A DNA stretch of 64,000 nt, from positions 2,914,001 through 2,978,000 of the forward strand of contig CM039008.1 in assembly GCA_017499595.2 (NCBI GenBank), read 5' to 3'. Numbering within the stretch: position 1 is the stretch's first letter; each line of letters opens with the position of its first letter. Of the stretch, positions 10,822 through 35,413 are shown in pieces. Both the position numbers and the translations under genes were made by a program. This DNA is from Psilocybe cubensis. Lineage: Eukaryota. The notes beneath the pieces were generated by a model, which searched no databases, had not been told where the DNA came from, and saw only the letters and a program-made list of their open reading frames with translations.

Positions 10822-11002
10822 TGTTGGAATGATAGTCGGCGAGCGACTTCGTTGCTAAGTCGTTATCTTTCTCTTGTAGTTTATCTTATCATATTTTTTC
10901 TAGATCATTCTACTACAGGTTCCGTAGCTACTGTAGGTACAGGTGTATAGTTACGTCGTGAATCGATATCTTTTACCACCACTGCGCATTTTACTTACAA
11001 CA
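10822..11002 (+). repeat. 5' LTR (181 bp)
   Basis: Identical to 30845-31025 except T10853 vs C30876 (CpG transition). Confidence 0.97.
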
Positions 11003-11014
11003 GGTTATGGGCCC
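11003..11014 (+). promoter_or_regulatory. Primer binding site (copia/Ty5 half-tRNA-iMet type)
   Basis: GGTTATGGGCCC directly after the 5' LTR. Confidence 0.8.
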
Positions 11015-11097
11015 CGAGAGGTCATAACTAAAGCTCGCTTTGTTCTAAACTCGTTCTATTCTTATCGATCTATATCTAAACTTGTACTCGACGTCAA

Positions 11098-12574
11098 ATG
11101 GCTGACTCGACAACCGCGGAAGTCAACATCGGCGGATATCGCATCGACACACTGAAGGCCCACAATTGGATGCCGTGGAAGCGGCGCATGCTAGCAGTAC
11201 TGGTGGACCTCGGACTGGAGAAATACGTGGACGGCACGTCGCTTCGACCAGGATCAGCGAAACCGAACGCACCCACGGCGGAAGAAATCGCAGCTCAGAC
11301 AGCGTGGGATAAGGGAGATGCGAAAGCGCGATGCAGGATCGAACTCGCGTTAAGCGATGCGGAGATGGTACACGTCCTGGGAGCGCGCACGGCGCGCAAG
11401 ATGTGGACGCAGTTGTGCACAGTGAAGGAATCCAAGGGACGACTTGGTGTTTTGGCGACACGACGAGCACTTTTCCGGGCAACCGCAGAGGAGGGATGCG
11501 ACATGGCAGAGCATATCGCAAAGCTACGTCAATTCCAGGAGGAGCTGCACATCATGGGCAGCATTGTTTCGGACGAAGATTTCGTCATGATTTTGCTCAC
11601 CTCGTTGCCGGAATCTTGGGAGAATTATGCGTCATCCTTTTTGGGCTCGAGCGGGAATCGTCCTACGCTCACTTCGCAAGAGCTCGTTGGTGTTCTCCTT
11701 GAAGAAGCTCGTCGTCGGAAGGAGCGTGGAGGTGATGGTGCCGGAGGGACTACGCTTCAAGTTTGTGGAGGTCAAGGGTCGTCGGATGGAAAGGGTAATG
11801 GTTCGAGGGATGGCAGCGGCGGGAAGGAGTGCTATAATTGCCACAAGATGGGGCACATTTCGAAGGATTGCTGGGCAAAGGGCGGAGGTCGTGAAGGAAA
11901 GGGTCCGAGGGGGCGGAAGACGAAGAATAGAGGGCGGACAAATCAGGCTCGGGAGGACGTCAACACTACGCTCAATGATGAGGTTGCGTACCACACGTAC
12001 TCGACGTCGAACTTCTCTCGTTACGACTGGCTTTACGATTCTGCAACCACCAGTCATGTTTGTCCCGTCCGTGAAGCCTTCATCGAGTATACGCCACTCG
12101 TTAATTCCTCCGTTCGTGGTGTCGGAAAGAGTCCAGCTATCATTGCAGGCCGCGGAACAGTCATCCTCAACTTCGATGTCGACGGGCAGACGATTACTCA
12201 TCGTTTGAAAGACGTTTTACACATCCCTGAAGCCGAAAATGCTTTGATGTCGCTCGGAAGGTTTGAGAGGGATGGGAGGAGCTCGTCGTTTAAGAATGGG
12301 AAGGTTCTTTTGATGGATGCGAAGGATAAGGTTATTGGAAAAGGGTCGAAACGCGGTCAGATGTATATTCTTCACGCTCGCGCTCAGCTTAATTCAGGGG
12401 AACAGGTCAACTACGTCTCGCCAAAACTCACCTGGGATCAATGGCATCGTCGTTTTGGCCATATCTCAGTGTCGTCGTTGCAGAAACTCGTCCGGAACGA
12501 TCTCGTCGTTGGTCTTTCCGTGGACGAAACGTCTATTCCATCCCCATCGTGCGAGGCGTGCATCCAAGCGAAGC
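11098..12574 (+). CDS. Copia gag-pol 5' part (gag, zinc knuckle, protease, GAG-pre-integrase), interrupted
   Basis: CYNCHKMGHISKDC, WLYDSATTSHV, WHRRFGHIS...CEACIQAK; breaks at the KDZ insertion. Confidence 0.95.
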
Positions 12575-12575
12575 C

Positions 12576-12892
12576 ACATAAGACAGTTTATTTATAACGT
12601 ACATTACCTAAGATTTAATAATAAGGATATTACGTGAGACACGGTGGATTTACTTCCGCTACCTAATTAGGAGATTAGCGTGATGTACGTGTGATTTAGC
12701 CTGGCAAATCATAGCGTACATGACGTGCCATTTAGCGCTAAATGGAGCCGCCGGGTGGCCTGCGGGATCCGCGCGTCTACCTACACGGAAGAAACACGGG
12801 CCGGAAATGAGCCGGACGGGTCCATTTGCATCCCGTGTATTGCAAGCAGACGGATCCGCTTGACCCGTGTTGTGCTGTCAGACGGACCCATT
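12576..12892 (+). repeat. Left TIR of KDZ element (317 bp)
   Basis: Exact reverse complement of 27825-28141; contains palindromes CCTAATTAGG and CCATTTAGCGCTAAATGG and several ACACGG motifs. Confidence 0.96.
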
Positions 12893-13017
12893 CATCCATC
12901 CGCTTCTGTATTCCGACAAATATCCGCCTTGAATCGTACATTGGATGACCGTTAATATATGTAATAAGGTGTATAGATTATACTGGCAGCAAATTCCTTT
13001 CCACATACCCTGATAGT

Positions 13018-14297
13018 ATGGATTATGCCTTTGAGCTAACCCAATCCCTCTCAAACTACATGAAGGCAAAGATAGCTAGTCGTCTTTGGCATGCAGAACT
13101 GCCTAATCAAATCCGGGAAAACTTCAGTGCTGAGACCATGTTTGAGTGCAATCTAGCTGTGGAGGTGATTTTGCAGGCATTTGAAAATCAAGGTATGCAA
13201 TCAATAAGCTTTGAAAATTGAGATTAAATAATGTGTGAATGGCAGAATATACGACGTGGGATGCAGAAGAATATTTGACCCATCTCAGCGCACGTTGCAC
13301 GGGTCAGAATTCTGCCGTTGAGGCTCGCCTGAAAGACCAGTTTCCTCCGGTGCATTCCACGTTACAGTACCAAACCCTGCCCGGAACTGTAATCGATAGT
13401 GCAGGCAACATATTGGTGTGGTACCTGCCAGGTATTTTGTCAGAGACAAGGGTGGTGAGTTTTAGAAACGGACCAATTAATTCCTATATTATGCGTTCTA
13501 AAGAGTAACAGGAGAGTGTGTGGAATTCATTACGGGATATTGAAACAATGATTCACAAGGCGGCACCTTTGGCCACAAGCTGGAGGGTCAATGACAGTTA
13601 CTTTCGACATGAGCCAGGTTGGCTTCAACCTGGAAATCTTAACTTTTCCCCGGCATGGTTTCAGCAAGGCCATGAGGTGAGAAACTTGTTTGCTAAGTAT
13701 TATACTGCCTCATATTTTCCTCAGACGTCCAACCCGCTTGAGGTCTCCTTGGACTTGTGTAATCCTATTGGACAGGAGTTTATACGAGACATGATGACAT
13801 CTTCGGCTTTGCTGGGAGCCATCTTGAGCATTATACACCCCGAGCAGTACCGGGCGGGAATAAAATTTCTTCAACGGCTTGCTGCGGAACCGGAGCTCGT
13901 CCATAAGGCCAAAATATTGAAGCAAATTCTCACAATATGGAGTTCGCCCTTTGGAGTCATGACCGCCATCAGCAACCGAGATACACCGTACCATCGGGAT
14001 AATGGGTCATGCTACTCATGGTACGATTTTTTGATGCCACTTGGGAAGGGTGAACATGGACGGCTTGAGCTTCCTGGCCTTGGACTTCGGTACAAGTATG
14101 ATCCCATGACCCTTGTTGCAATTACCGGCAGGTTGCTTCAACACGGCGCGGTGTGCGAGGGAGATAGGGCAGTCATAGTCTATTACATGCGTAGGAATGT
14201 ATTTAAAGAGCTGGGAGTCCAAGAGGCGGGATGGTCTACTACGTACGATCTTTTTGCAAATTTACCGGCCACCAACACTTTTGATTTTGAAATATGA
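13018..14297 (+). CDS. TET/JBP-family 2OG-Fe(II) dioxygenase (4 exons)
   Basis: Exons 13018-13192, 13246-13454, 13512-13676, 13725-14297; SPAWFQQGH, NRDTPYHRD (HxD), LLQHGA (distal His), DRAVIVYYMR (2OG-binding Arg); lies in a KDZ element. Confidence 0.9.
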
Positions 14298-14381
14298 TCA
14301 GTTTTTGACTTGGAAGTTGGGTTTGGGGAAGATTTTTTTATATTTCCAAAACAAAACGGTACGAAAGCTACAGAACAACCA

Positions 14382-14659
14382 GAATTCTCTGTCCCAGGGT
14401 GTTTCCGACGCGCCCGCGCTGAGCTCTTCCAAGGTTACCGGAATCATCGGACTCCGCCGTCGTATTACCGGCGGAAAAGGCATCATCCGCCTCCTCTTCG
14501 ATGTCCTGTGCGAGAGGTGGGCAACTAAGATTCCTCATCCCAGGGTGTTTCCGACACGTCCTCGCTAAGCTCTTCCGAGTTACCGGAAGCATCTGACTCC
14601 TCCGTCGTATCACCGGCGGAAGACTCCTCATCCGCCTCCTCTTCAAAGTCCTGTGCGAG
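14382..14659. repeat. Diverged ~135-bp tandem duplication
   Basis: ~14382-14515 resembles ~14529-14659 (CCCAGGGTGTTTCCGAC...CATCCGCCTCCTCTTC...GTCCTGTGCGAGA). Confidence 0.8.
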
Positions 14660-16149
14660 ATGCTCTAAAAACGTAGCTGGTGTAGAGGATTCAGTGGTAT
14701 CGGACGTACTATCAATATCATCCTCTTCTCCCGGGAAAACAGGTCTTGACCTTGCGTTAAAAAGGAAGGCATTGCTGGTGTGTGCATTTGACGGAGGGCT
14801 GACGGAACCGGGAGTAGGCAGAGTATCTGTTGGGAGATGAATATTTGCAGTGTTGGAGGGTGGCGAATGATACCAGAGTGGATGAAAAGGTAGTTCCTTG
14901 ACGGCAATAAAAGAATAAAAAATGTCGTTGATGTAAAATGAAGCGACTTTGAGCTTTGAGACCTCGAAGGACCGGGCTTGAGCCGTTATAGCGCCCCAAC
15001 TGTCAGGAGAAGGGTGAACGGGATGCTGAAATTTGTATTTGGCTGAAAGCCCCTTGCCGTTAGAGAACGGGTGCTCCTTAGAGTCAATCCACATCTTCTC
15101 CAATACAGAATATCTGCCCAAGGCGGCCGAAGAAGTAGTCACTGCTTTATGGGCATTTTTCATTTTGTCCGCCACATTCCGGCGCAGGTGAGCCAACTCC
15201 CTCATTACGCCCGTTAGGATAGGCTGACCGCAGTGGGGACAGTAGGGCGGTCTGTGGTCAGAAATTGCAATTGGGGATGTTTCATCCCGCGTGTTTGCAA
15301 CACGGGTCGGCGGATTGGGTTTCCCCGTGGGCGGTGAAAACGCGGAGCCGTGCTTTCCCGTCAACGCGGATCCGTGCTTCCCCAAGGTGGGGACGGATGT
15401 CCGTTCAGCCGCCTTTCCCTTGCCCTTGGGATTGTTTTCCTGATTTCTTGGAGGCCCAGAGGTAGATGAACTTGCGCCCTCCTTAGCTTCTTTCCTCTGA
15501 TTATTTAGCCGGAGTACCTCTTGTTGGTATTCAGGCAGAACCACCTGGTGGGAAGGACGCAAATCAGATATAATCCACAGCAATAAAAAAACATACCTTG
15601 TTCCAAAATTCTCTTGCTTGCGATTCAACGGTAACAAAGGCAACTTGCCACTCATCGCCTTCAGCAAATCCGTCCCTCCACCAATATCCCCAGCTCTTGG
15701 TCTGATTTAAAATTTCATCATCTTCCCATGCTGACCAGCTTTGATTTAGAGATTCAAATAGAACAGCTCGATGGTGGGGAGTTCGGTTCAAAACGGCATG
15801 TACGCTCTGATTGAGAATTTCTGATATAAAAAATGGAATATCGACTTGGAATCCATTGACATAGCAGTATCCGAGTACTCTCAGCAGTATAGCCTGACGA
15901 CCAGTTCTCAATACAAGATATAATCGTTCAAAATAACTGTCTTACCACCTCCAGGTCGAGCAAATACATCCATTTTTGGCGACGCACGGAGGAAACAGAG
16001 TCTCCGTTTGCAATGAACAAACGGTATCCGGCATGGATCCGTGCACCACAAATATGGACATGAACTTTGGCCAGAGCACGTCGCTCATCATAGGTAAGGA
16101 GATGATGTTCGTCCTCGACAGGAGGTTTAAAAAGCCGCGGTAAGTGCAT
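14525..16149 (-). CDS. KDZ cargo protein of unknown function (3 exons, CPHC motif, acidic tail)
   Basis: Exons 16149-15946, 15893-15597, 15544-14525 join in frame with GT-AG introns. Confidence 0.72.
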
Positions 16150-16193
16150 GAATTCAACGAGATGGGATACAACAAGAATGTTCAAAGAACTGG

Positions 16194-19100
16194 TTAATCT
16201 GTAATTATAAATCTCCACACGGACGGATACTCCGGGTTAATTTGACGGAAGACCTTATCCGCGGCCCGCCCCAGATCATTCCACATGGCAATCTGCTTTT
16301 GAGCATTTGCCCTGTGACCAACTAACCTGTCAGGAACAAAATCATGCCGTGCACGCCATGTCTTTGCCATATACACATAAAATCTGACAGTCCATTCCAT
16401 TTCCTTTTTTGTCAAGGCCAGCTCCTCTTGCCATCTATTCCTCTGAGCTCGCGCGCGGAGCCAGTTTAGCCTAAAGACTAAGAAGCCCTTGAGAAAAAAA
16501 TTAGAAATACAAATAGCAGTACTCACACTCATTAACGTATAATTGATTATCATTGTCCAGGCCCTGACGGGATCTCCAAATCCAACTTAGACGGTCCGAG
16601 CTTCCTCCGCGAATGTTCGGATCCGACACGGCATTACTATGCTTGCAATCATGGACTTGCAGAATGGGATATTGTTTCCGAATATTATCCTCATCTCGCA
16701 CGCCAGCAGATAAATAGATCATCTTCTGACGGTTTGTGTTGTAGAGTCGCCGGTGCAATTTCCAGGAAGCATTCAAAAGCTTGACGCCATCCCAAGCACG
16801 AGTCCCCATATAGATGGAGTCGGCGGTCCGAACCTGATATTTATACTGCCAAGAAAGCTGGATCAAGGCTGACCGGACCGCTTCCAGACAGTCCTCTGCG
16901 TGGCCATGTCTTATTTGAAGTTCAAGTTTGCGAAGCCCTTTTAAAATGAGGTTTGTTCCCGCGTCAAGGCCGTCAAAGAAATCTTGTTTGACGGCGGAGG
17001 GAAACAGAAGCGGCTGTCGTTCTGGATCCGCGCGGGTAATGTTGACATTTCCAAGATCAGGATCGTCGTTGTCACTGACTTCATAGTCAAGTATGGGAGC
17101 GATGTCCCCTTGAATATCCTCCAAGACATCTTCGCCCATGAAGGTCATAGCGGATCGACAGAAGGCTTCAACGCGGGTCCGCATGGAGCGACGTTTATTG
17201 ACCAAGTCAAGTTTCTGCGCGGTGGAAGGATGCTTTCCGAGCTTTCTGACATGGTCCCTGAGCTCCAATCTAAAAGCATGTTAAATTCTGTAGGATGCAA
17301 TTGAAATAATCGTACTGCGCTTGCTCCAGTTTTAAGCCGGATGATATCCATGCTGCCTTTCCAGTAGCACCATTAGATGTAAGTTCCATATTTGAAAGAT
17401 GCAATTCAATTTCTTGGCGTCCAGCAGCCGTTTTCACTTTGCTTGCCATTACCTTGCCAACAGCGTCGGCCACACCTTGTTCTCGGTCCGCTTCTGCTTT
17501 TGAAATTTCATCTTCCCAAGTGTTGATGAGCCCGGAATCTTGTTGATCCGTGATACCCCTATAAAATCGGTCTGTGATTCCGGACTGTTCCCGTGCCCGT
17601 TTGAACTTTGCAGCAATTGTTGCAGCCATATTAATGGTCTTCTTCCAGTTGGAATCCCCCATGTGGTCGTCCAAAACCTCTGCTCGATGGGCAGTGGTAG
17701 CGGAACGTGTACTCCGGGATGTGTCATTCAACACGGACCACAACGGCTCCAGGATTTCTCCGTCAATGATTCCCACACCCGGGACATAGGTGGATGCGTA
17801 GTTGTAAAGACATTCCGTCTTGTGCCCGTGGACGTGAAATAAACCAATTGCAAAAATCATTTTAACAGAAGGTGGCCAATGCATTTTTGTGGACTCTGAG
17901 AGACGCCTTGCCAAGTTAACGCAATATTGACAGTTTATATCGTAGATTTCCAAATGTTTTGTGATTCCCTGTGTGTTGGTAGTTTCCCTGGCCTGAGTCA
18001 AAGACCAATCCATGTGCATCTGCTTTTCGCCTTTGTCAAAATCGACAACGCTGGATGGACAGAAGCATCCGTGCCTAGCGCAAGCGTGTGCCCCAATTCC
18101 ACGTACTCTCTTACCCGGGCTGACTCTGTTTTCAGCTTTCTGGGCGTGGTAGTTATGACATGTTTGTTCCTGATATTTTTTTACACGGAGGATAAGCCAT
18201 CCGCCGTGGAAGATTTTTTTGACACGGAAGGGAAGCATCCGCCGTGGAAGATTGTGACACGGAACGTAAGCATCCGCCGTGAAAGATAAATCATGGTAGA
18301 TAACGCACCCGTTTATAACGTGGAGCAAGAGAAATTGCTTCCTTGATGTGCTCCTTGTATGGGCCCGGAGCAGTCATGTATCCTTCTCCAACGCTCAACC
18401 AAACATCGTCTCCCTCGTTTTTCTGATTGAGGTGATCTGCTTTGAAATTACCATCTGCAACATAACTACGTATGTACAGATTGCTATTTGCTGTTAATTG
18501 CAGTCACCCTTGAAGAATAACTAAAACTTGCCTGTCAGCATCATCAATCCAGGTATCAGGTAGGTTTATTCCAGGCTGTGGACAGGCGGGGCAGAATAAG
18601 GCCAACTTCCCTCTCCTATCTTCAACTTTGGGATGATCCTCGGTCCGCGTCATTTGTGGTGCAGGCGGACCATCTAATCCGCCGTGTCCCAGAGACGGGT
18701 CCGTTGACATTCCGACTTCTTGAGACGGACTATCAGATCCGCCGTCAATTGGATCAGATACATTAATACCCATCCTCTCTGGTGATGAATCATGGCAATG
18801 ATGATAGTAAGGGACCACCGCTTCTCTTGTATGCCCTTCTCCGTATTGTCGTCTCAGGACAAGGTCCCTGTATTCTCTACTAAGCCTTCTCAATTCACGA
18901 TAGCGGTTCAGCACCTTTTTTGGAAACGCTGGCAAAGTCAGTCTTCGCAACTTTTGGTAATACTGATAAGCCGACGTTTTGCACTCGAGGTTGTCCATCC
19001 GAAAGTCCTCAAGGACCTCAACTGTGAACACAGTTTGAACGTTTTCAAAGCTGGCTGCAAATAATCCCATCTCCAGATACTGTAAATTGATAGACGGAAG

Positions 19101-20116
19101 GCGGACGGACCGGCATGTGCATGTTCGCACGGGCAGATAATGGACTCCGGAGGTGTGCACAATTGCCTTGAAAGGAATTCCATTGTTGTCTGCTGCCTTT
19201 GGACGAGGTTGGTCCAGATAGGTTGTATCGACTTCCTCGAATAGATCATCGTCTTCATCGTCTCCATCGTCCAGCTCAACCAAATGGGGTACCTCCGGGT
19301 CCGCCAGAAGCTGAGCCGTAAAGGATTCTTGGTCATTGCTCGCAGGAAGCGGATCCAGGTCCAATCCGTGTTCATCCTCAAAGATGGGCAAATTGTTTCC
19401 GCCGTGCCCATGACTCCCGGATGAATTGTTTCCGCCGTCGCATCCTAGATGGCTCGGATCCGTGGGATAAGGACACCGCTTCCCATTATGACCCAAATAC
19501 AACTTGACACCCACTTCCCACAGAGCTCCCGGACGGAAATATAGACCCGTCCACTTCTCAACGCGGTGGAAAGGTGTAAATTGATGGTTTCTTCGCAGGC
19601 ATTCAGAACACAAAATTCTAGAGCCAAAGCATTGGCAACATCTCCACACTCCAGACATTCCTTGACATTGCTGACACCGTCCATTCAGATCCGGATCCGG
19701 GGCTTCTCCTCCAATCATTGTTCCAAGATACACCTCTCGTTTCGGGAGCCATTCCCTCAGGTAATCATTTTGAGACTGGATAGGTAAAGTCATCCTGATC
19801 ATTCTACTGAAAACATGTTAAAACATACCTTTCCTCCCGTTCTGTCGTCATCTAGCTGTCTCAGGTTATCAAGTACCTGCTGATCAGTTAGATCTCCCGG
19901 ATAATGAGGTATTTCTTCTTCCAGAATGTTGTGTTCATGGTTTTGGAAAGAGTAAGTCGTTGTTTGAGGGAGGTTTGTTGATGATGATTCTGCAGGAAGT
20001 TTGTGGATCCTCGGCCGCCCTCTCTTTCGTTTCTTGGCCCCACTAGACCAGGAGGCCTCCCGAACATTGGGAAACTCCTCATCCGATCCCCTATCAGGTA
20101 CTTTCTTGAAGCCCAT
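16194..20116 (-). CDS. KDZ transposase with CxC2-type cysteine cluster (6 exons)
   Basis: CQQC..CCQC..CSEC..H..PFH; VHTSGVH..CTC; CPACPQPGINLP; DGNFK; CARH; YDINCQY; FHVHGHKTEC; DGEILEPLW; WLRARAQRNRWQEE; exons 20116-19829, 19775-18532, 18483-18309, 18169-17316, 17269-16527, 16477-16194. Confidence 0.93.
18183..18297. repeat. Three ~36-bp tandem repeats in a transposase intron
   Basis: ACACGGA-N3-AAGC(C)ATCCGCCGTGRAAGAT three times. Confidence 0.85.
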
Positions 20117-20995
20117 GGATGTTGGAAACAAAGAGTCTGACAGCCTGTGAGCGCAGATCTAAATGTAGTATAACATGTTTATTTCTGTAGATAAATTTCC
20201 CTCAATTATGCCGTTTTAAAGAGGAGAAAAATAGCTTTCATATGACTTATCTTGCAGCATATTTGGATGAGTGAGTGAAATGTTATGAACAAAACTTAAT
20301 CCAGAGATGCACAAAATGGACGTGATCCCATCATAAATGTACAATATGATGCAGAACGACCCTTTCAGAACCACACTTTGGAGTGTTTTTGAAATATCTT
20401 TTCACTGGCTGGCCCCTCATTCCTCCGGCGTATATCATATGAAAGATATTTTTAATAGCTACCGAATGACATTTTTTGTAGAATGTGAATCCTCGTATTT
20501 AAGGAGATATTCTCAATATACTAGAAAATGTGTCAAAATGAGCTCACTGGGATCATTATATTTTTTGAAAAAAATTATGCATTTGAATACCTCTCATGGT
20601 CTCTGAGATGACTGCCGTTTTGGGTTTCACAAGTTTTGGGTGAGAAGACGTGAATTTGAATTTTGTGTTTCTGTATCTTTACAGCCATCTAACAAGAATT
20701 TAAAACCTTGTAAGATTATCTTTATATAAAGCGCTAAATGTTTACAAAATTTCATGTTTATTGATTGAGTGCAGAGGGAACTATTGCAAAATCATGAGGT
20801 CAATGTATGTGACAGCAACCAGCATGCTTTGATCATCGTGGCCAACGATGAAGCGGGATTACCTGATTGGGAAAAATATGACATCACATCATTCATTTAG
20901 TATGATCGGAAGCTTATTTTATCTCCGTATGACGTGAGATTTGACTAGATCACACAGATACTCATCGATAAGCTACTTGTTACATCGCTGCAATT

Positions 20996-23243
20996 ATGCC
21001 CACCAATGCATCCCCCGACGCGGATCCGCTTCCTTCCACCGCAAATGCCACAACCCACAACGGACCCAGAAGCGGACAGACGGCGGAGGGTGACTTTCCG
21101 CCGGAAGAATCAAATATATGGACCACAAAGGAAATGCGCGTGTTGAAAAAGCATGTACAGCCCTACAAAGATACATCAAAGTCATCCAAAGCAGACTACA
21201 TACAGAACACTGTCATACCTGAGCTGCAAGCTACATGGGATCACAGATACTCTAGACGTGCTAGGAAGGAAGATAAGCAACTACACAAAGAATGGAAGGT
21301 GAAGAAGCATGTGAGCTCGTTGTTTCTTTGAAAATTTTGTTACACACATAAACCATCACAATAGCGAATTTTTAATTGGTTTAGAAACCATGCGTCAAAT
21401 CGAATTGGTGTAAAATTGGAAGGATTGAACTCCCGTATAACCTTTCAGACGGTATTCCGTGAGGAGAAGTCGGCAGAGATTGACTCCGAGGTTGCGCTTC
21501 TATCAGGGAATGCTGCTCGTGGAAGTAAAGATTGGATGAAGTTTTATCAACAAGGACGTAAGCAGGTTGAGGCCAGATTGACTCAGGAGGAGCGGGACAG
21601 GTTCATGGAGATCCTCGAGGAATGGAATAAGAAAGGTGTTTCAAAATCAATGAAGGCAAAGTGAGTCGGTGGAACTTGTTTCCGCCGTCAATCTGACATC
21701 TGCAGGACTGCTGCCAGGCAAGGCAGAAAAATACTTCGACAAATGGAGAAACTTAAGTGGCAGAGAATGGGTATGAGGTCCATTACCTTTGAGGGGCATT
21801 ATGATATTGAGGGTAAAATCGAATACTCAATGTAAGTGTTAAACACGGCATGAACAAGTTCCGCCGTGAATGCTTACGGCGGAATAATTTGGCCCGTATT
21901 AATGTTGACTGATGGGCATTGAAGGACCCAGACAAGCGATCTAGCACTCGACGATGTCAGAATTCCTTCCTTTGGGCAACTCTTTCCATCCGAGTTGGCC
22001 GCTTTTCGCAGAGCGTTTGTTCAATACCTTGTCCACATTTCAGAAATAGAGAAGGGTGTGGCCAATCCAGCACTGCCAGATGCATCGTTTCATGAAAAAT
22101 CCCTCAAGTTTAGCAGCAATGGATTTCCAATAGTACCTAGTCCTATCTATGGCTCAACTGGGAGAGAAGTCGCTTATGCGCAAAAGTCAATTATTAGAAT
22201 TTACATGAACAAGGTTTATGGTGTGTAATTTGTCTATGTCCTCAACAAACTTGCTAACTATGTATACAGCTTTAGCCAAGGATAGGCCTGGTTCAAGTGT
22301 TCCTTGGGATGCTCTTGAAAGGCGTTCTGCAGAAATGATTGATCCAGAGCATTGGCCAAGTTCAATCCCCGTGACGGATCCGAGCCGGCTCCGCCTGGAG
22401 TCAACTTCTGCAATTCTCAAGCTATGGAGGGACCGTCAAGCGCAAGGAGACATCCCCTTTAAATTCTCAAAGGTTTTTGGAAATGGCTATGACATTATGG
22501 AACCTCTCTATCCGTCCAACTTGTTTGACGGCCTAGAAGCCCACCCGATACCTCCACCTCCTGCAGCCATAACCAAACGTCGGCTGAGGCAAAAAGCTAT
22601 ACGACTTCAAACCCAATCTTCAAGCGACTCTGAATCATCCAATCTGTCAGAGTTTGATAATGGACGGGGCAGTCCGGCATCCGCGATGCCACGCACTACT
22701 GCCAGATTTGAAGTCACGCCAGAGACGGATGAGACTCCTACCGACGCACCTTCAAGATCTAGCGAGCCACCCTCTCTACCAAGTAGATCCAGCCCAACAA
22801 TTGTCAATCCATCATCCAGCCCAACTCCAGAGGTTGAGGAGGCGCCTCCCAAGCCAGCTAGAAAGATTATGCCAAGAAAAAGAACAAAGCCATATGTCGG
22901 AACGGCGGAAATGGATGGACCCGATGAAGAGAGTTCTGTACCCCCCCCAGTTAAGCCAAAACCAACTAGAAGGATTCAACCTAGGAAAAGAACAAAGCCC
23001 TACTCAGATCCACTTGACACAGTGGAAGAAGATGGAGTCCAAACAGGAACAACCCAAGACACGGATAATACACGGGCCGGCAGGGACGTGACTTGTGATG
23101 CCTTTGTGGAGACAGTAACAAGTCCAGATACGGATGAAACACGGGCCCGCAGGAATGTGACTTCGGATGCCTTAGCACTTCAGGAAGCAAGTCTGCTTGC
23201 TGTAGCAGGTAAAAGACAAAGAAAAAAAACTTTGAAAGCCTAG
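20996..23243 (+). CDS. KDZ-associated protein with WFxN helical region and HMG-like segment, S/P/T-rich tail (multi-exon)
   Basis: RIFNWFRNH; WMKFYQQGRKQVEARLTQEERDRFMEILEEWNKKG resembles a divergent HMG box; HMG genes are known companions of KDZ-TET elements. Confidence 0.7.
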
Positions 23244-23510
23244 CTGTTGAAGTAGATTCATGATACCTATTGAATGTGATGCTTTTTATTCTTATCTTGA
23301 TGTTTCTCAAACATGTTTTCACACAAAATCAAAACAGAAAGCGGGGTTCATTAAAAATCATCAAGTGCTACTTTTTGGGAGAGGTATAAAACAGATGAGC
23401 ACATGAGAGTAAAAACTATATACAGTCCAAATATTAAAAATTGTACAATGCAATCTATGAGACAAGGCAAAAAAGGAGACCAAAAAAAAGTTACAAAGAA
23501 TTGAAATACA

Positions 23511-26082
23511 CTACTTTTTTTGGGCCTTGGATTTTTTGGGCGAGCGCGATGCTTCAGCCAGAGTCGTTTCCGCCTTTCGCTTTCGTCCAGCCCTTGTCTT
23601 TGTGGCTATGTTCGACGCGGGCAGCGTGGACGCCACGATCTCAACATCCTCCTCCTCCACAATTTCAACCTCGTCGCTGTCCGAGGGATCAGACAACTCC
23701 GATGAGTGTCCATTCCCGGATGGCCCAGCCTTGGAGGATGGCTTAGCCTTTGACAATGGCTTAGCCTTTGAGGATGGGCCGGCCTTTGACGATGGCGCGG
23801 CCTTTGACGATGGTGCACCCTTTGACAACGGTGCGGCCTTTGACGTCGAACTTCGAGGACGTGGAGCTGGGAGAGGGGGTGGTGGAGACAGGGAAAGGAT
23901 GGGCGGTACCGGTGGGAGCGAGGGTCGGCCAGCTGGGGGGGGGCGAAGGCGCTTCCGGAGTCGAACCGGGCAAGAATAGCGCTGTTGGTGGCGCAGACAC
24001 GGCAGGGAGGACGGGTGCGGGTGGAGGTGGGGGAGGGGAAGGGAGGACAGGTGCTGGCGGTGGTGGAGGAGGGGAAGGGAGAATGGGTGCTGCTGGAGGT
24101 GGAGGTGGGGAAGGGAGGGGTGCTGGCGGTGGTGGTGCGCTTGGGGATTGTGGCACAGAGGTGGGTTCACGGGTCCGCGACGGACCCGATTCTTGTTCGA
24201 CCTCCGTCTTGGAGGGTCCTGCTGCCTGTTTGGGGGCGGGATTCCTTTGTTCATCCTGCTCTAGCAAATCGTCGACCACATCTCGGACGTGGTTGATCCT
24301 CTTGGTGATGTCGTTGAACATCGTGACGGAAAGCGAGGTGCTTCCTGCCACTTGTTCTTTGGCCATGGTCCATTCGGCCTTCACCTCTTGGATGCCGTCC
24401 TCGATGCTCTTCATCCTGTTCTCCACCGCCAAGTTCGTCTCGGCAAACGTCGCAATCCGTGCATTAATCGCCGTCATGGACGCGGATAACCCGTCCAGCC
24501 GTTCCATGATTCTGCCTTGGCGCTCAAAGAGCTGCACAAGCAGTTCTCCCACATCCTCGGGGAACGACCCTTCCCCGGCCTTCCCCTTCGCCGGAACATC
24601 TTCTCCCTCCTCCAACTTCAACGCCTCCCCATAGCTTCCCAGTGGCGTCGTCAAAAATTGACCCACGAAGGTGTTGCGCCCCGGGTAGAAGCTGCAGTGG
24701 ATCTTGCGAGACTTGCAAGACTCGCAAGATTGGTGCTTCACGGGGACGAGAGGCTCAGTGCCTGTCTCCCCCTTGACATAGCATGGCACCTTGAATTTGA
24801 TGCATGCCATGCACCTTTCCACCATGTCCACCATCCCCTCTGGCACCTGGCGCACTTTCTGGGATCTCGACCGCGCCTTCCTGATGGGGGGGACATCGTC
24901 CTCGGCGTCCTTCTTTACGGAACGCGTGCGCATCTTCCGGGTGGGGGTGGCAGTGGGGGTGGTAGGCGGTGCCCCTTTGTTATCGCCTTCGTCGTCCTCG
25001 TCGACGTCCGCGTCCGCGTCTTCGTCCGTGTGGCTTCCTATGATCGCCTTGCTCCTGAATTTCCCCTGCTTGGACTTCGCCAATCTTTCCAGCTTTTCCC
25101 TGTACGCTGGGTGACCGGGCATGTTGGAGGCGGTAATATGGGGAATGATTTCCCCCTTCTTTGTCCGTGGGCCCCTGTAATCCGCTGGAGCCAACTGAAT
25201 GGACTCCACGGGGTCCGCCGCTTTCCGTTTGCCCTTGTCTTTGTGGGCGTCTGTCACGGGTCCGTCTTCCACCGGGGGTTTGACTGCCTTGCCCTTGCCC
25301 TTCTCGGCCCGTCTCTTCTCCGTCTCCTCCTTGTTCCTCTCCTCGTCTGTCTCCTGCTCCTGCTCCTGCTCCTGCTCCCTCTTCCTCCTCTCCTCCGCCT
25401 TCTGCCTCTCCTGCTCCCTGGTCCTCCTCTCCTGCTCCCTCTTCCTCCTCTCATCCTTTCTCCTCTCCTCCACCTTCTGCTTCTCTTCCTCCCTCTTCCT
25501 CCTCTCCTCCTCCCTCTGCCTCTCCTCCTCCTCCTCCCTCTGCCTCTCCTCTTCCTCCTCCCTCTTCTTCTTCTCCTCCCTCTTCCTCCTCACCTCCCTC
25601 TTCCTCCTCTCCTCCACCCTCTGCCTCTCCTCCTCCTCTTGCTCCTCCTTCTCCCTCCTCTTCTCTTGCTCCTCCTCCTCCCTCCTCTTCCTCTGTGCCT
25701 CCTGGCCTTCCTGGTAGGCCTTGAAGTTGGCGACTTGATGTTTGAGCGTCGCCCAGTCGACCTCAAACCTGTAGATGTTCTCGCCGTCCTTGCCCTGGAT
25801 GACTTTGTACGAGTAGACAACGGGGCTCGCAACATAGTCAATGAGCCGGAAGCGGGCGGCGTCCCTGACATGCTCCTGACACAATGGAACCTATTGGAAT
25901 TTTTTTTTTTTTGTTGAGCAAGTCATGATCTTATAAAATTGAGAACTTACCAAGTCCCTGTAAAGCTGCTCCAACTCAGCGTTGAACGCGCTTTCACCGT
26001 TGCGGTAGCACTCGGTAAACTTTTTTTCCCAGTCAGCGAGGCGTTGGGCGAAGGTGGCGGTGGTGGAAGATGAAGCGGCCAT
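23511..26082 (-). CDS. KDZ cargo protein: E/R/K-rich coil, Zn2Cys6-like cluster, coiled coil, Pro-rich and basic tail; apparent frameshift at a G9 run
   Basis: Exon 26082-25951 spliced to 25890; C-x2-C-x6-C-x18-C-x2-C-x6-C at 24813-24694; frame change at 23935-23943. Confidence 0.75.
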
Positions 26083-26567
26083 TGAAAAAAGCGTGTTTTT
26101 ATGGGGGAAGACGCGTTAAATGGGTGAGGCACGGTAGAATGTGAGGGTGGTGATCGTGGTTGGAGTTTGTCTAAAAAAAGTCTAAAAAAAAGCGGTCCCG
26201 CAAAACAAAACCATACACAAACATGTACAATCTGAGTCATGTGATTTCTTCACCAGATCCAGTTTGTGCAAAAGTTGCTAAGTTCGATACACGGGTGAAT
26301 CTATTTCCGTGTCATGGAGAATCCTCGGATAGTATTGTATTCCGTGAGATATATAAACAAGCCCACCCAGTTGCACTTTCTGGACTGTATGTCCTCCTAC
26401 AACTTTATTCCCACCTCTAGCAAAAATTCCCCCATTGACTACACCAGTCTCAACAATCTTACCAGGCTTCTTGAAAAACTGAAGGAACCTCCTCCCGTAA
26501 AACCTATAAAATGTAAGACTAATGGCATTAATTCAAGTAAATTTTAATTGATTTCTGAGCATCAGCA

Positions 26568-27746
26568 ATGTCTTCAAATATTAGCAACTCTAAGGAAAGC
26601 AAACGCACAGCAAGGACGGATGACCTGGCTCCGCCGCCAATGCCAGTCATTCCAGATAACCTGGCTCCACCCCCTATGCCTGTTATTCCAGATAACCTGG
26701 CTCCTCCCCCTATGCCAGTCATTTCATCTAACCTGGCTCCGCCCCCTATGCCAGTCATCCGGAAAGACCTGGCTCCGCCGCCAATGCCAGTAATTCCAGC
26801 TAACCTGGCTCCACCCCCTATGCCTGTCATTCCAGCTAACCTGGCTCCGCCGCCAATGCCAGTAATTCCAGCTAACCTGGCTCCACCCCCTATGCCTGTC
26901 ATTCCAGCTAACCTGGCTCCACCCCCTATGCCAGTCATCCGGAACGACACGGCTCCGCCGCCAATGCCTGTCATCCGGAACGACACGGCTCCGCCGCCAA
27001 TGCCTGTCATCCGGAACGACACGGCTCCGCCGCCAATGCCTGTCATCCGGAACGACACGGCTCCGCCGCCAATGCCAATCATTCCAGATAACCTAGCTCC
27101 TCCCCCTATGCCTGTCATTCCACCTACCCTGGCTCCTCCCCCTATGCCTGTTATTCCAGATACCCTGGATCCTCCACCTATGCCTGTCATCCGGGATGAT
27201 GTGGCTCCGCCGTTGATGGCAGCACATGTTTCATACACGTCTGTCGTCGACAAAATCATTATGGACTCTCGTCCAGCTATTTCCTCTGAGAGGAAGCAAG
27301 GTCGCTATTCTCCACCCCCTGAAGCATGCCACCTGCTCCTTCAAAACCCTTATTTTCGAACCTACGGCAGGTTTGATCCCATGGGCGGCTACCCCGGTTT
27401 GCCTCCCACCCAGTCTGACATTGAGTTCGAGGATGTGACAGATCAGACGGCATATTTTAACCCTCCTTTTCTATATGTATGCACTCAGATATTACCAAGC
27501 ACTAGATACTGACAACTATTTTAGAATTATACCGAGCAGCAGCTACGGGCAACATACGACCAAATAATCGACAGTTCCGTCGGCGACAATAGTTATGACA
27601 GCAAGGTCACAACGTTTAAGAACCTCCGCCTGCATCAGCTGCAGTCAGAAATTCTGACTTATAATGCGCTGGAGGAAATTGACGCTGGGCTGGCAGGGAT
27701 TGAATCGAGTTTGGAAAAGCATTTGTATACCGGTAGAGATGAATAA
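26568..27746 (+). CDS. KDZ cargo protein with 12-aa xxLAPPPMPVIx repeats (2 exons)
   Basis: Exons 26568-27476 and 27525-27746; silent variation among repeat units on this strand. Confidence 0.72.
26619..27218 (+). repeat. 36-bp coding minisatellite, 16 full units plus 1 partial
   Basis: GGCTCCNCCNCCNATGCCNGTNAT core repeated in tandem. Confidence 0.95.
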
Positions 27747-27824
27747 ATTATTTTTGGAGCCCTTGTGCTCATTGATTCGCAATACCTCTCAAATATCCCT
27801 CCCTCTCTGGGAAGATACGGGTCA

Positions 27825-28141
27825 AATGGGTCCGTCTGACAGCACAACACGGGTCAAGCGGATCCGTCTGCTTGCAATACACGGGATGCAAATGGACCCG
27901 TCCGGCTCATTTCCGGCCCGTGTTTCTTCCGTGTAGGTAGACGCGCGGATCCCGCAGGCCACCCGGCGGCTCCATTTAGCGCTAAATGGCACGTCATGTA
28001 CGCTATGATTTGCCAGGCTAAATCACACGTACATCACGCTAATCTCCTAATTAGGTAGCGGAAGTAAATCCACCGTGTCTCACGTAATATCCTTATTATT
28101 AAATCTTAGGTAATGTACGTTATAAATAAACTGTCTTATGT
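27825..28141 (-). repeat. Right TIR of KDZ element (317 bp)
   Basis: Exact reverse complement of 12576-12892. Confidence 0.96.
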
Positions 28142-28144
28142 AGC

Positions 28145-30844: not shown

Positions 30845-31025
30845 TGTTGGAATGATAGTCGGCGAGCGACTTCGTCGCTAAGTCGTTATCTTTCTCTTGT
30901 AGTTTATCTTATCATATTTTTTCTAGATCATTCTACTACAGGTTCCGTAGCTACTGTAGGTACAGGTGTATAGTTACGTCGTGAATCGATATCTTTTACC
31001 ACCACTGCGCATTTTACTTACAACA
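30845..31025 (+). repeat. 3' LTR (181 bp)
   Basis: Preceded by the polypurine tract 30836-30844; followed by TSD ACCTC. Confidence 0.97.
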
Positions 31026-32225: not shown

Positions 32226-32822
32226 ATGGCTGTGAGTGTATTCCGAGTCCCATATTCCGTATTCCTGTATTGCGCATTGTTCACTTGGACTCACATTTTT
32301 GTGTTATGTCTCCTTCTAGTCCTCCCGCAGCACCCCATGCCCTAAGTGTAACAAAACCGTCAGCAAGCAATCTGATTTGGCGAGGCATATAGCCTCCCAT
32401 AACGAGGCCAAGTAGCCCAATTTCTCTCCTCCGCTTCATTGTTTTACCAATGCAACCCTTTTGCTTTTCAGAGACAGGCCATTCAAGTGCATCGAGTGCA
32501 CTTTTACATCGAACACGACAACCGGGCTCAAAAATCACTGGAGAACCCAGTAAGTACCCGTCCTTATCAAGCCTACTTACTAATGCTTTCTCCAACTAAC
32601 CAATCCACACATCACAGTACCAATGACCCGTTGAGGTGTCCCTACAGCGGATGCGAAGCCAGAATAAACGATTCTGGGAATATGCTCCGCCATTGTGAGC
32701 GCAAACATGGGTATATACCACAGACGCGGGCACACAGAGCTTCCGCCGCGTCATCCACTTCCTCCAATCACCAAATTCCTTCCTCCTCCTCCTCCTCCTC
32801 CTCCTCCTCCTCCTCCTCCTCC

Positions 32823-34875: not shown

Positions 34876-35413
34876 ATGGCTGTGAATCTATTCCTGTGTT
34901 GCGCATTGTTGTTCACTTGGACTCACATTTTCGTATTATGTCTCCCTCTAGTCCTCCCGCAGCACCCCATGCCCTAAGTGTGACAAGACCGTCAGCAAGC
35001 AATCTGATTTGGCGAGGCATATAGCTTCCCATAAAGAGGCCAAGTAACCAAATTTCTCTCCTCCGCTTCATTGTTTTACCAATGCATCCCTTTTACTTTT
35101 CAGAGGCTGGTCATTCAAGTGCAGAGTGCACTTTTACATCGAACACGACAACCGGGCTCAAAAATCACTGGAGAACCCAGTAAGTACCCGTGCTTATCAA
35201 GCCTACTTACTAATGCTTTCTCCAACTAACCATTCCACACATCACAGTACCAATGACCCGTTGAGGTGTCCCTACAGCGGATGCGAAGCCAGAATAAACG
35301 ATTCTGGGAATATGCTCCGCCACTGTGAGCGCAAACACGGGTATATACCACAGACGCGGGCACACAGACCTCCTGCTGCGTCATCCGCTTCCCATCTCGT
35401 TACATGCCTATAA
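34876..35413 (+). pseudogene. Recent truncated duplicate of the 32226 zinc-finger gene
   Basis: Near-identical to 32226-32760; TGCATCGAGTGC has become TGCAGAGTGC (2-bp deletion in finger 2); C-terminal half absent. Confidence 0.85.

Follow-up and report, generated by a model that had tools for sequence, protein, structure and literature searches.

A multi-copy KDZ transposon, likely of the Kyakuja lineage, with a TET/JBP gene and accessory genes, nested in a young Copia element of Psilocybe cubensis

In this study, we analysed a 64,000-nucleotide stretch of Psilocybe cubensis DNA (the whole of it is called the window) and found a 15,567-bp transposon (positions 12575 to 28141) nested in a young Copia retrotransposon. 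We consider it very probable that this is one slightly decayed copy of a multi-copy, cut-and-paste KDZ transposon, likely a Kyakuja element. The first-pass annotation had proposed a KDZ-TET transposon whose ends are defined and which encloses accessory genes, and this is borne out by terminal inverted repeats (TIRs) and by Pfam matches to KDZ, CxC2, and Tet_JBP. The strand order that it gave (+ - - + - +) also holds, for the TET gene, gene 2, the transposase, gene 4, gene 5, and the gene 6 open reading frame (ORF). Five of its six genes are supported, whereas the sixth, encoding the Pro-repeat protein (gene 6), is a candidate ORF only. The termini and the insertion site are as follows.

10822 to 31025, + strand: host Copia LTR retrotransposon, with LTRs at 10822-11002 and 30845-31025
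12568 to 12574, no strand: left-hand flanking copy of the target, GCGAAGC; its 7 bp are the duplication length expected of the family
12575 to 12892, + strand: left TIR, which starts CACATAAGACAGTT and contains subterminal short repeats
27825 to 28141, - strand: right TIR, which ends ...CTTATGT; the terminal G of other copies is absent
28142 to 28144, no strand: AGC, remnant of the right target-site duplication (empty-site joint with 3 shared letters)

An inverted-repeat search of the window returned arms at 12573-12892 and 27825-28144 (320 nt, displayed as 100%); read directly, the ends depart from perfect pairing at one base, the third from the outside (12575 C versus 28142 A). The exact pairing is 12576-12892 with 27825-28141, in agreement with the earlier claim of TIRs identical over 317 bp, and blastn of the window against itself placed the TIR sequence at two sites only. 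The same comparison showed the Copia LTRs to be 99.4% identical over 181 nt. Between these LTRs lie the Pfam domains Retrotran_gag_2, gag_pre-integrs, rve, and RVT_2, which place the host element in Ty1/Copia; its gag-pol frame is broken by the transposon at 12573/28144, and the transposon landed in the integrase-coding part. Of the left target copy, only the last 3 nt (AGC) are found again on the right side.

Public sequencing reads contain the corresponding empty site. The joint 12571->28142, with 3 shared letters, is present in 103 X15 reads and also in contigs of runs X1, X2, and X7. In X15, read depth was ca. 450 to 580 over the element and ca. 150 over the Copia flank, and it was fairly even along the element except for a low-complexity stretch and gene 5. 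From 1631.7 M letters read, and conditional on an assumed genome of 40 to 47 Mb, this depth corresponds to roughly 13 near-identical copies. X15 also yielded 658 junction reads with diverse flanks (536 breaking before 12575 and 122 before 12574), or about two ends per estimated copy. One further insertion, nested within another copy (joints 13113->12574 and 12575->13108), is flanked by a 7-bp duplication, CAAATCC (14 and 9 reads), and has CAC...GTG ends, the same family termini that are shown by the break points of the junction reads. The 7-bp duplication of the family is read from this insertion, the sole one read at both ends. A 3-bp (or 2-bp) duplication of the CACTA type had been considered as the family rule and was dropped, since the nested insertion showed 7 bp. 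The window insertion itself shares only 3 letters at its joint; given the single nested insertion and the literature, we infer a 5-bp junction deletion at this copy, or alternatively it may represent an atypical 3-bp insertion event.

Other copies carry the same genes, as the first-pass annotation implied: in an annotated P. cubensis genome, gene 5, gene 4, and the transposase occur under consecutive locus tags at five loci, in line with the fairly even depth, and there are five further transposase-gene 4 pairs. Recent activity of the family is supported by the empty site, the ca. 13 copies, and the nested insertion. Mis-assembly can yield long perfect inverted repeats, and Kyakuja elements were reported without TIRs in the available text of Kojima (2025, PMC12730594); on such grounds, one might suspect that the structure stems from faulty assembly or that two elements merely came to lie together by chance. 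However, of the words in a 10-kb query (12576-22575), independent runs from several studies contain 0.71 to 0.91, the empty site is precise, the number of junction reads fits two ends per estimated copy, and the nested copy has both ends together with its duplication, so that we regard this explanation as extremely improbable. The multi-copy transposon is the reading that we develop below, beginning with its two enzyme genes and the spacer next to them.

13018 to 14297, + strand: TET/JBP dioxygenase gene, 389 aa; exons 13018-13192, 13246-13454, and 13512-14297
16197 to 20116, - strand: KDZ (Kyakuja-type) transposase with CxC2 cluster, 1196 aa, Pfam KDZ and CxC2, open spliced frame; exons 20116-19829, 19775-18508, 18465-18309, 18169-17316, 17269-16527, and 16477-16197
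20117 to 20995, no strand: AT-rich spacer between the divergent transposase and gene 4; GC 0.38 (20001-21000) versus 0.46-0.49 around it

In the TET/JBP fold, HxD...H provides the metal ligands and R is the 2-oxoglutarate-binding residue. The claim that the TET/JBP protein of the element keeps this signature proved correct on alignment to CcTet of Coprinopsis cinerea (PDB 7vpn, 8jkk): the TET exon aligns to CcTet residues 200-418 (E 2.3e-27 with 7vpn), and HRD (as HxD), the distal H, and R are all aligned. Pfam Tet_JBP matches at 13509-14297 on the + strand (E 4.4e-19, 68.7 bits versus a cut-off of 34.9), and once the introns of 53 and 57 nt are removed the frame is open. The predicted product is CcTet-like, with the metal- and 2-oxoglutarate-binding residues aligned; about one-third of the aligned residues are identical, and it is a homologue of CcTet and not an orthologue.

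The transposase likewise splices into an open frame, as had been claimed, with 1196 aa and no internal stop, and the model keeps 97 near-invariant columns (25 homologous sequences). Pfam KDZ (PF18758) matches at 17270-18373 on the - strand (E 7.6e-38, 130.8 bits versus a cut-off of 26.6), and CxC2 (PF18803) matches at 18504-19817 on the same strand (E 2e-21), N-terminal to the catalytic domain; a KDZ catalytic domain with a CxC-type cysteine cluster N-terminal of it is the arrangement of the KDZ superfamily. Its C-terminal residues recur in the annotated P. cubensis models of 1195 aa, and 37 of 68 homologues end at the same point. Some public gene models join two genes via impossibly small introns. 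Among these P. cubensis models is P0001, a 1691-aa fusion of the transposase and gene 2, which we rejected because it needs gaps of 15 and ca. 23 nt; a splice model guided by it collapses beyond residue 1154. The AT-rich spacer is presumed to be a promoter region shared by the transposase and gene 4.

Several features point to the Kyakuja lineage. At its 5′ end, the element shares 12 of 14 bases with the start of the Kyakuja-1_LB consensus, and Kyakuja-1_AuPo and Kyakuja-1_SuBr begin in a similar way; the consensus starts given in the available part of Kojima (2025, PMC12730594) are CACATATGACAGTG and CACATAAT. According to the same source, Kyakuja elements have 7-bp duplications and 5′-CA..TG-3′ ends. 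Here, the left end is CAC and the right end of the family is GTG, its final G missing from the window copy. With the TET-positive Kyakuja elements of Agaricomycetes, as far as the available text describes them, the element has in common a KDZ transposase with an AG-type TET/JBP gene, an Agaricales host, a 5′ end patterned as CACATA..CAGT, and, in the family, CA..TG termini; the one nested insertion agrees with them in its duplication of 7 bp. Based on terminal sequence, CxC2, and TET type, it most likely belongs to the Kyakuja lineage of the KDZ superfamily. Unlike the window element, with its 317-nt perfect TIRs, Kyakuja-1/2_LB were reported there without TIRs, and we find it doubtful that absence of TIRs is a defining trait of the lineage. 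Accessory genes, present here, are not described for Kyakuja in the available text of that paper, and the available part of its Table S1 has no Psilocybe, Hymenogastraceae, or Strophariaceae entry.

Another parallel is KDZ1 of Cryptococcus neoformans (Huang et al., bioRxiv 10.1101/2024.08.15.608186), which, in the available text of that preprint, is a 10,944-bp element with 236-bp TIRs, a CxC-domain transposase, extra genes of unknown function, and experimentally observed mobility. Both are thus large KDZ elements with long TIRs, a CxC transposase, and extra genes. However, KDZ1 belongs to the Dileera clade, with CxC1, an 8-bp duplication, and no TET gene mentioned in that text, whereas the window element combines CxC2 with TET.

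Next to the transposase, and divergent from it, lies a conserved accessory gene.

20996 to 23243, + strand: gene 4, 668 aa; exons 20996-21310, 21365-21660, 21706-21831, 21925-22220, and 22270-23243

Gene 4 is a real gene of a wide family, with 280 representatives at E<=0.001; its product is identical to P0072 at 665 of 668 residues. We describe it as a putative DNA-binding protein: its N-terminal domain is helical, its basic tail is disordered, and it has two further domains, one HMG-box-like and one GTF2I-like. An AF2 model has pLDDT >90 across residues ca. 40 to 430. The HMG-like protein of the first-pass annotation corresponds to gene 4, and the likeness is weak. Pfam HMG_box_2 matches 6 of 62 family members at E<=0.05 (the best, at 2e-4, lies at the cut-off), P0072 gave no HMG-box match by Pfam profile, and single gene 4 exons gave no credible Pfam domain up to E 5. 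In the fold search, HMG boxes, an L-shaped three-helix fold, make up 11 of the 50 matches listed (residues ca. 122 to 212, Z 4.5 to 5.4), and the top match is the GTF2I-like 2d99 (Z 7.3, 89 of 90 residues aligned); every gene 4 match lies below Z 8, the caution line of that search. The GTF2I signal recurs in Pfam (6 of 62 members, best 0.0057), in a profile search of the family against PDB sequences (E 0.04 to 0.05, in a search with no match below E 0.017), and in Foldseek (probability 0.57 to 0.77 but E >1), which returned nothing at E<=0.001 with the gene 4 model.

In Crepidotus variabilis, a gene 4 homologue and a KDZ transposase have adjoining protein numbers and equal-sized contigs, and in Agrocybe pediades the contigs of another homologue and of a KDZ transposase have the same length (19,805). 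Gene 4 adjoins the transposase in other P. cubensis copies and apparently in another genus. Iyer et al., in 2014, reportedly linked TET/JBP genes to CxC-cluster KDZ transposases in Coprinopsis and Laccaria, and such elements are said often to encode a divergent HMG-domain protein. The HMG-domain protein of that association fits gene 4, which also shows a GTF2I-like domain signal; here, moreover, a single family is defined by its boundaries, duplication, copy number, and complete set of genes.

The remaining genes are as follows.

14525 to 16149, - strand: gene 2, tentative 492-aa model; exons 16149-15988, 15893-15597, and 15544-14525; start approximate
23761 to 26082, - strand: gene 5, exons 26082-25951 and 25890-23761 in the window copy; frameshifted
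26568 to 27512, + strand: gene 6 ORF, 314 aa, candidate gene; 36-bp tandem array of 16.5 copies at 26619-27211

The first-pass annotation listed an acidic-tail protein. Its ORF is present but the upstream exons were missed, and it probably forms the final exon of gene 2, a distinct gene downstream of the transposase. Removal of two GT..AG introns (94 and 52 nt) leaves gene 2 with an open frame, whose product has one CxxC and an acidic tail encoded on a 145-bp repeat (1.8 copies). A Flammula alnicola protein, P0013, matches 15887-15594 (28.6%, E 1.4e-10; E 0.003 for the mid part); gene 2 gave no Pfam match and no usable atlas match.

In its family form, gene 5 encodes 838 aa and extends to a stop at 23511-23513; the protein comprises an E/K/R-rich coiled coil, a cysteine cluster, a long helix, Pro-rich repeats, and a basic tail. 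The frameshift of the window copy lies in a G9 run (23935-23943); the run is one base shorter in 282 of 353 reads from X15, as it is in the X1, X2, and X7 contigs, and in silico removal of the extra base restores the frame. The proposed Zn2Cys6-like identity of gene 5 survives in its cysteine spacing alone. The Zn2Cys6 consensus is CX2CX6C-X(5-12)-CX2CX6-8C; gene 5 has CX2CX6C-X18-CX2CX6C, with a linker longer than that range. The Pfam Zn_clus profile stayed below threshold (11.4 bits versus 21, E 0.36, 14 of 39 profile positions), and the AF2 model of the cysteine region has pLDDT 30 to 54.

The gene 6 repeat reads APPPMPVIxxxL. Its APPPMPVI core is invariant, and within this core unit-to-unit variation is confined to third codon positions. 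The opposite strand is also open (26528-27304), and because the two open frames share wobble positions, the period-3 pattern cannot separate the strands. Neither strand's ORF was present in the protein collection by exact look-up, and neither gave a Pfam match.

It is possible that genes 2, 5, and 6 are passengers (captured host fragments or fast-evolving repeats) and that the functional parts are limited to the transposase, TET, and gene 4. None of the three has a credible Pfam domain up to E 5, and atlas searches gave either nothing or, for gene 5, only "hypothetical protein" rows scoring 0.83. Relatives of gene 5 were found only in P. cubensis (P0069, P0070, and P0071; 3 clusters of 4582 candidates, 389 to 1241 aa) by a word-based search that distant relatives can escape, a limit that also tempers their value as evidence for passengers. 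Moreover, identity between two gene 5 subtypes is just 86%, against 98 to 99% among the transposases; the 36-bp array of gene 6 can be read through on either strand; and the window copy persists with a broken gene 5. On the other hand, 8 of 10 annotated members of the gene 5 clusters have the full 811- to 838-aa frame, the weak gene 2 homologue lies downstream of a Flammula transposase, the gene 6 core varies at third codon positions only, and tblastn found no paralogue of any element ORF elsewhere in the window. On balance, we think a pure passenger role for these genes rather unlikely, although it deserves serious consideration.

The opposite view, which builds on the first-pass annotation, is that the window copy is complete, intact, and still active, and that its six genes, with their accessory proteins, form a self-contained chromatin-modifying and regulatory module. 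TIR identity across 317 nt, open frames for TET, the transposase, gene 2, and gene 4, recurrence of the gene set in other copies, the HMG and GTF2I signals in gene 4, and the Zn2Cys6-type cysteine spacing of gene 5, followed by a long helix, are all in its favour. However, the data speak against completeness of this copy: it lacks the terminal base at its right end, 4 nt are missing from the duplication (3 nt present, where 7 bp would be expected from the family), gene 5 is frameshifted relative to most reads, and CpG-to-TpG changes account for 16 of the 20 differences listed between the window copy and the family majority. The subthreshold Zn_clus match, the low pLDDT of the cysteine region, and the candidate status of gene 6 also weigh against a module of six genes. 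"Complete, very young, may still be active" is thus fair in that the family was recently active but overstates the case for the window copy, and we judge the intact-copy interpretation improbable and the self-contained module to be speculation. The window copy is slightly decayed, through end loss, the gene 5 frameshift, and CpG-to-TpG changes. Its own ends probably no longer allow it to move, whereas sister copies may still be mobile.

For the slightly decayed member of a mobile family that we favour, the following division of labour can be proposed. The transposase would excise the element and integrate it at its ends. The TET protein would oxidise 5-methylcytosine, and possibly 6mA as CcTet does, and so oppose silencing of the element by CpG methylation. 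The gene 4 product may bind DNA, perhaps at the subterminal repeats, and either help the transposition complex to assemble or direct TET, while genes 2, 5, and 6 would be lineage-restricted cargo. A bolder version, which we consider a long shot, is a self-targeting anti-silencing unit in which the gene 4 protein recognises the subterminal repeats and recruits TET there, perhaps along with the products of genes 2 and 5. Were this true, demethylation would be focused on the family's own copies, and this would account for the retention of a separate TET gene by each transposon family and for the persistence of gene 4 beside the transposase across genera.

As a kind, TET-carrying KDZ transposons are already known from other mushrooms. 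What this family adds is a Kyakuja-type element in Psilocybe whose boundaries are fully defined, with TIRs that are long and perfect and with many near-identical copies, its termini fixed, and a 7-bp duplication indicated, by an empty site and a nested insertion; a conserved accessory gene beside the transposase, with HMG-like and GTF2I-like signals; and CpG-to-TpG decay in a copy that encodes a predicted demethylating enzyme. The family thereby offers a usable system in which to ask whether a transposon-encoded TET shields its own element from methylation.

The element is real and well bounded, and of a kind already known, and the present copy is slightly damaged. A repeat search of the window returned a single inverted pair (12573-12892 and 27825-28144, 320 nt, given as 100% identical). 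When the ends were read directly, the third outermost base proved to be mismatched (C at 12575, A at 28142), and exact pairing joins 12576-12892 with 27825-28141; the 317-nt identical terminal inverted repeats (TIRs) claimed by the first-pass annotation were thereby borne out. Self-BLAST and a paralogue search of the window revealed no third TIR site and no second copy of any element part. On either side lies one half of a Copia retrotransposon, with these Pfam domains:

11080-12573: Copia 5' half, with Retrotran_gag_2, Pol_BBD and gag_pre-integrs
28144-30837: Copia 3' half, with rve, SH3_retrovirus and RVT_2

Read across the element, the Copia gag-pol frame passes from ...CEACIQAK to QTHKPFP..., and the LTRs (10822-11002 and 30845-31025, 181 nt each) are 99.4% identical, with one differing position. 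Since the element halves one gag-pol frame between near-identical LTRs, it is an insertion within a young retrotransposon. Downstream of the Copia element lies a direct repeat of ca. 505 nt (32260-32762 and 34889-35392, 94% identity), and near the start of the window a cytochrome P450 domain (E 3e-22) is encoded by an open frame (228-977, minus strand) that is probably a host-gene exon.

Part of the stretch is contained in 14 public runs from 6 studies, 9 of which hold at least half of its words; we aligned the reads of one DNA run (X15) and the contigs of three sets (X1, X2 and X7) to 11000-30000. An empty Copia site shows as a joint from 12571 to 28142 that skips 15,570 nt (3 letters fit either side); 46+57 X15 reads carry it, as does one contig in each of the sets X1, X2 and X7. 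X15 depth was ca. 150 on the Copia flanks (both directions summed) and ca. 450-580 over 12902-23045, fell to 310-370 over gene 5 and to ca. 170-210 over a low-complexity stretch, and was ca. 450-480 over the gene 6 array. With 1631.7 M letters read and a genome size assumed to be 40-47 Mb (the contig-set sizes), this gives a rough estimate of ca. 13 element copies at ≥95% identity and ca. 4 Copia copies. Most of the latter are empty at this site in X15, so the insertion may be absent from that strain.

The same reads caught one copy inside another. One joint goes back 540 nt, from 13113 to 12574 (14 reads, 1 ambiguous letter), and the second links 12575 to 13108 on opposite strands (9 reads). 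With host bases 13108-13114 (CAAATCC) on both sides, the two joints amount to an insertion, with ends CACATAAG...CTTATGTG, that made a 7-bp duplication. Two internal-deletion derivatives also were present: one (12917 to 13912, 27 reads) has lost most of the TET 5' part, and the other (19595 to 26435, 10 reads) the transposase start, gene 4 and gene 5. Loose ends in X15 begin before 12575 (536 reads, agreement 0.36) and before 12574 (122 reads, agreement 0.43), and no row at 12576 reached the threshold for display, so the outer C/G is present at most ends of both arms.

The left junction of the present copy is GCGAAGC followed by CACATAAG. Its right junction reads CTTATGT+AGC+AGACG, where a 7-bp rule would predict CTTATGTG+GCGAAGC+AGACG. 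This is most simply explained by the loss of 5 nt, comprising the terminal G and the initial 4 nt of the right duplicate; alternatively, this copy may have integrated atypically, with a 3-nt stagger. On both accounts, the right end is without the family's last base, and the mobility of this copy is probably impaired. In X1, X2 and X7, loose ends placed at 12570-12571 show several differing insertion flanks that end in AAGC or GAAGC beside the CAC terminus, which hints at a target preference.

Pfam recognized Tet_JBP (E 4.4e-19), KDZ (E 7.6e-38) and CxC2 (E 2e-21). The models for the first three genes are as follows:

13018-13192, 13246-13454, 13512-14297, plus strand: TET, 389 aa, open, with GT..AG introns of 53 and 57 nt
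16149-15988, 15893-15597, 15544-14525, minus strand: gene 2 (tentative model), 492 aa, open, with introns of 94 and 52 nt
20116 to a stop at 16197, minus strand: transposase, six exons, zero internal stops

As proposed from the sequence at first reading, the transposase thus splices into an open frame and TET keeps its HxD...H...R motif: in an alignment of the main exon with the Coprinopsis cinerea enzyme CcTet (PDB 7vpn; E 2.3e-27), the HRD, distal H and R all aligned. At 97 alignment columns where 24 or more of 25 homologues agree, the transposase model has the shared residue, and the nearest proteins are from P. cubensis, P0001 being 99% identical. Its C-terminal EYPSVWRFIITD also ends three 1195-aa models annotated in P. 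cubensis. In 37 of 68 longer homologues the C-terminus falls no more than 25 residues from the point aligned to 16203-16314, and only two (P0001 and P0013, the latter from Flammula alnicola) have matches below 16190; in the other 29 the alignment mostly stops earlier, five having unmatched tails of 57-282 residues. We also considered the 1691-aa P0001 as a single transposase, and rejected it: it reaches the "acidic-tail" ORF by skipping 15 nt and ca. 23 nt, too short for introns. For this reason we read gene 2 as a separate downstream gene. The fusion sites in public P. cubensis models such as P0001 lie at 16197-16240 and 16300-16330, other copies being annotated at 1195 aa. The "acidic-tail" ORF is probably the last exon of its three-exon model. 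P0013 matches the gene 2 middle exon (28.6%, E 1.4e-10) and, weakly, its CxxC region (pairwise E 0.003). Both the start of gene 2 and its separation from the transposase transcript are tentative. A 35-nt repeat (3.1 copies, 18175-18287) lies within the 139-nt transposase intron; all four runs have one unit fewer (joint 18175 to 18215).

Gene 4 (plus strand) yields a five-exon model of 668 aa, 665 residues of which are identical in P0072; a P. cubensis paralogue has 646 aa and is ca. 52% identical. At E≤0.001 a full HMMER scan places 280 cluster representatives in the family, of which 46 reach E≤1e-10 and 11 reach E≤1e-30; the ten checked belong to Agrocybe, Galerina, Crepidotus, Gymnopilus, Hebeloma, Cyclocybe and Dentipellis. 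In Crepidotus variabilis the gene 4 homologue (no. 891564) and a KDZ transposase (no. 891565) are each on a 691,380-nt contig, and in Agrocybe pediades each is on a 19,805-nt contig; the equal sizes are strong evidence, though not proof, of one and the same contig per species. The "HMG-like" label first given to gene 4 is suggested by signals that are weak but convergent. At E≤0.05, HMG_box_2 and GTF2I each hit 6 of 62 aligned members (best 2e-4 and 0.0057), HMG_box_2 hit 2 of 45 at E≤0.001, and P0072 itself has no Pfam domain. Modelled by AF2 from the alignment of 62 sequences, the protein scores pLDDT >90 over about residues 40-430. Foldseek gave the model zero matches at E≤0.001. In a wide structural search, where all matches fall under the tool's caution line (Z 8), the top ones were GTF2I domains (Z 7.3 and 6.9, residues 295-431); of the 50 listed, 11 were HMG boxes (Z 4.5-5.4, residues ca. 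122-212) and 4 homeodomains (Z 4.5-5.1, residues 30-122). A divergent HMG protein is reportedly mentioned for KDZ-TET elements in the 2014 abstract of Iyer and colleagues.

Gene 5 (minus strand) starts at 26082, has one 60-nt intron and in its family form encodes 838 aa; among proteins of 389-1241 aa, three P. cubensis clusters were the only relatives found. In the window it contains a G9 run (23935-23943) that has one base fewer in 282 of 353 X15 reads and in the contigs of X1, X2 and X7, and deleting a single G in silico brings the frame back as far as ...SPKKSKAQKK, as in the P. cubensis protein P0069. The 71 X15 reads that retain G9 argue for a real variant, not only an assembly error. The cysteine spacing (CX2CX6C-X18-CX2CX6C) resembles the Zn2Cys6 pattern named in the earlier description, with a linker longer than usual, but Pfam Zn_clus scored 11.4 bits, below its cut-off of 21. 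In the AF2 model the cysteine region is unreliable (pLDDT 30-54); only the long helix that follows is predicted with confidence. The family has two gene 5 subtypes: relative to the window, P0070 is 99% identical (residues 215-580) and P0069 86%. They differ over 24211-25245 (ORF residues 215-560), the transposases meanwhile being 98-99% alike, and may account for the lower read depth over this gene. At 23432-23465, in the interval separating the 3' ends of gene 4 and gene 5, about one-quarter of X15 reads have other sequence (loose ends of 125 and 136 reads, agreement 0.96-0.99).

The candidate gene 6 ORF (26568-27512, plus strand) is built of a 36-bp array of 16.5 copies. Inside the invariant APPPMPVI core its units differ at third codon positions alone, and the three or four residues between cores vary at first and second positions too. 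An open frame on the opposite strand (26528-27304) has the same wobble positions, so the period-3 pattern does not tell the strand of gene 6. Exact look-up in the protein collection found neither ORF.

The first-pass annotation named a lack of the extra genes in other copies as grounds for refutation; for genes 4 and 5 that objection does not hold, since five triplets place them in other copies.

Locus tags of gene 5/gene 4/transposase triplets in the annotated P. cubensis genome
Triplet 1: 0009326/27/28
Triplet 2: 0002971/72/73
Triplet 3: 0010150/49/48
Triplet 4: 0010382/81/80
Triplet 5: 0011985/84/83

Locus tags give five more transposase-gene 4 pairs, and gene 4 has at least 16 distinct tags among the 15 rows listed of its 22 members. 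Read depth suggests as much for the remaining parts of the element. The further proposal that the accessory genes form a "regulatory module" is conceivable but unsupported.

From 40 listed differences (436 further), we set aside 13 Copia-flank and 7 minor-variant rows. At 16 of the 20 remaining listed sites (13475-22350; at least half of X15 reads differ), the window has TG or CA against a majority CG. Change of CG to TG or CA is the signature of 5-methylcytosine deamination, and the pattern suggests methylcytosine-type decay in a copy that encodes TET. For CpG, the observed/expected ratio is 0.80 within the element and 0.89-0.95 in the rest of the window once Copia is left out. This copy had been called complete and very young; it is young by its TIRs, but CpG decay, the missing right terminal base and the gene 5 frameshift make that description an overstatement.

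According to the accessible part of Kojima 2025 (PMC12730594), TET+ Kyakuja elements of Agaricomycetes have 7-bp duplications and 5'-CA..TG-3' ends, and Zisupton and Dileera duplications are 8 bp. In its Table S1, the Kyakuja-1_LB consensus starts CACATATGACAGTG, and Kyakuja-1_AuPo and Kyakuja-1_SuBr start CACATAAT; the start of our element, CACATAAGACAGTT, matches the first at 12 of 14 bases. We provisionally file the element as Kyakuja-type from its end sequence, CxC2 and CcTet-like TET. Unlike Kyakuja-1/2_LB of Laccaria, published there as TIR-less, it has a 317-nt TIR. The Cryptococcus element KDZ1 (10,944 bp) is described, in the text available, as having a long TIR too (236 bp), with an 8-bp duplication (Huang et al., 10.1101/2024.08.15.608186). 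The accessible portion of the Kojima 2025 supplement holds no Psilocybe, Hymenogastraceae, Strophariaceae, Galerina, Hypholoma or Coprinopsis entry, and the literature on KDZ, Kyakuja or TET/JBP transposons has no mention of Psilocybe among the matches listed.

In C. cinerea, oxidised methylcytosine is found around Kyakuja copies and CcTet is active on 5mC and 6mA, as the same source reports in the part available (Kojima 2025, PMC12730594). In P. cubensis, the element would move by cut-and-paste, with the KDZ transposase acting at the CAC...GTG ends, the gene 4 product may serve as a DNA-binding helper, and TET would counteract CpG methylation.
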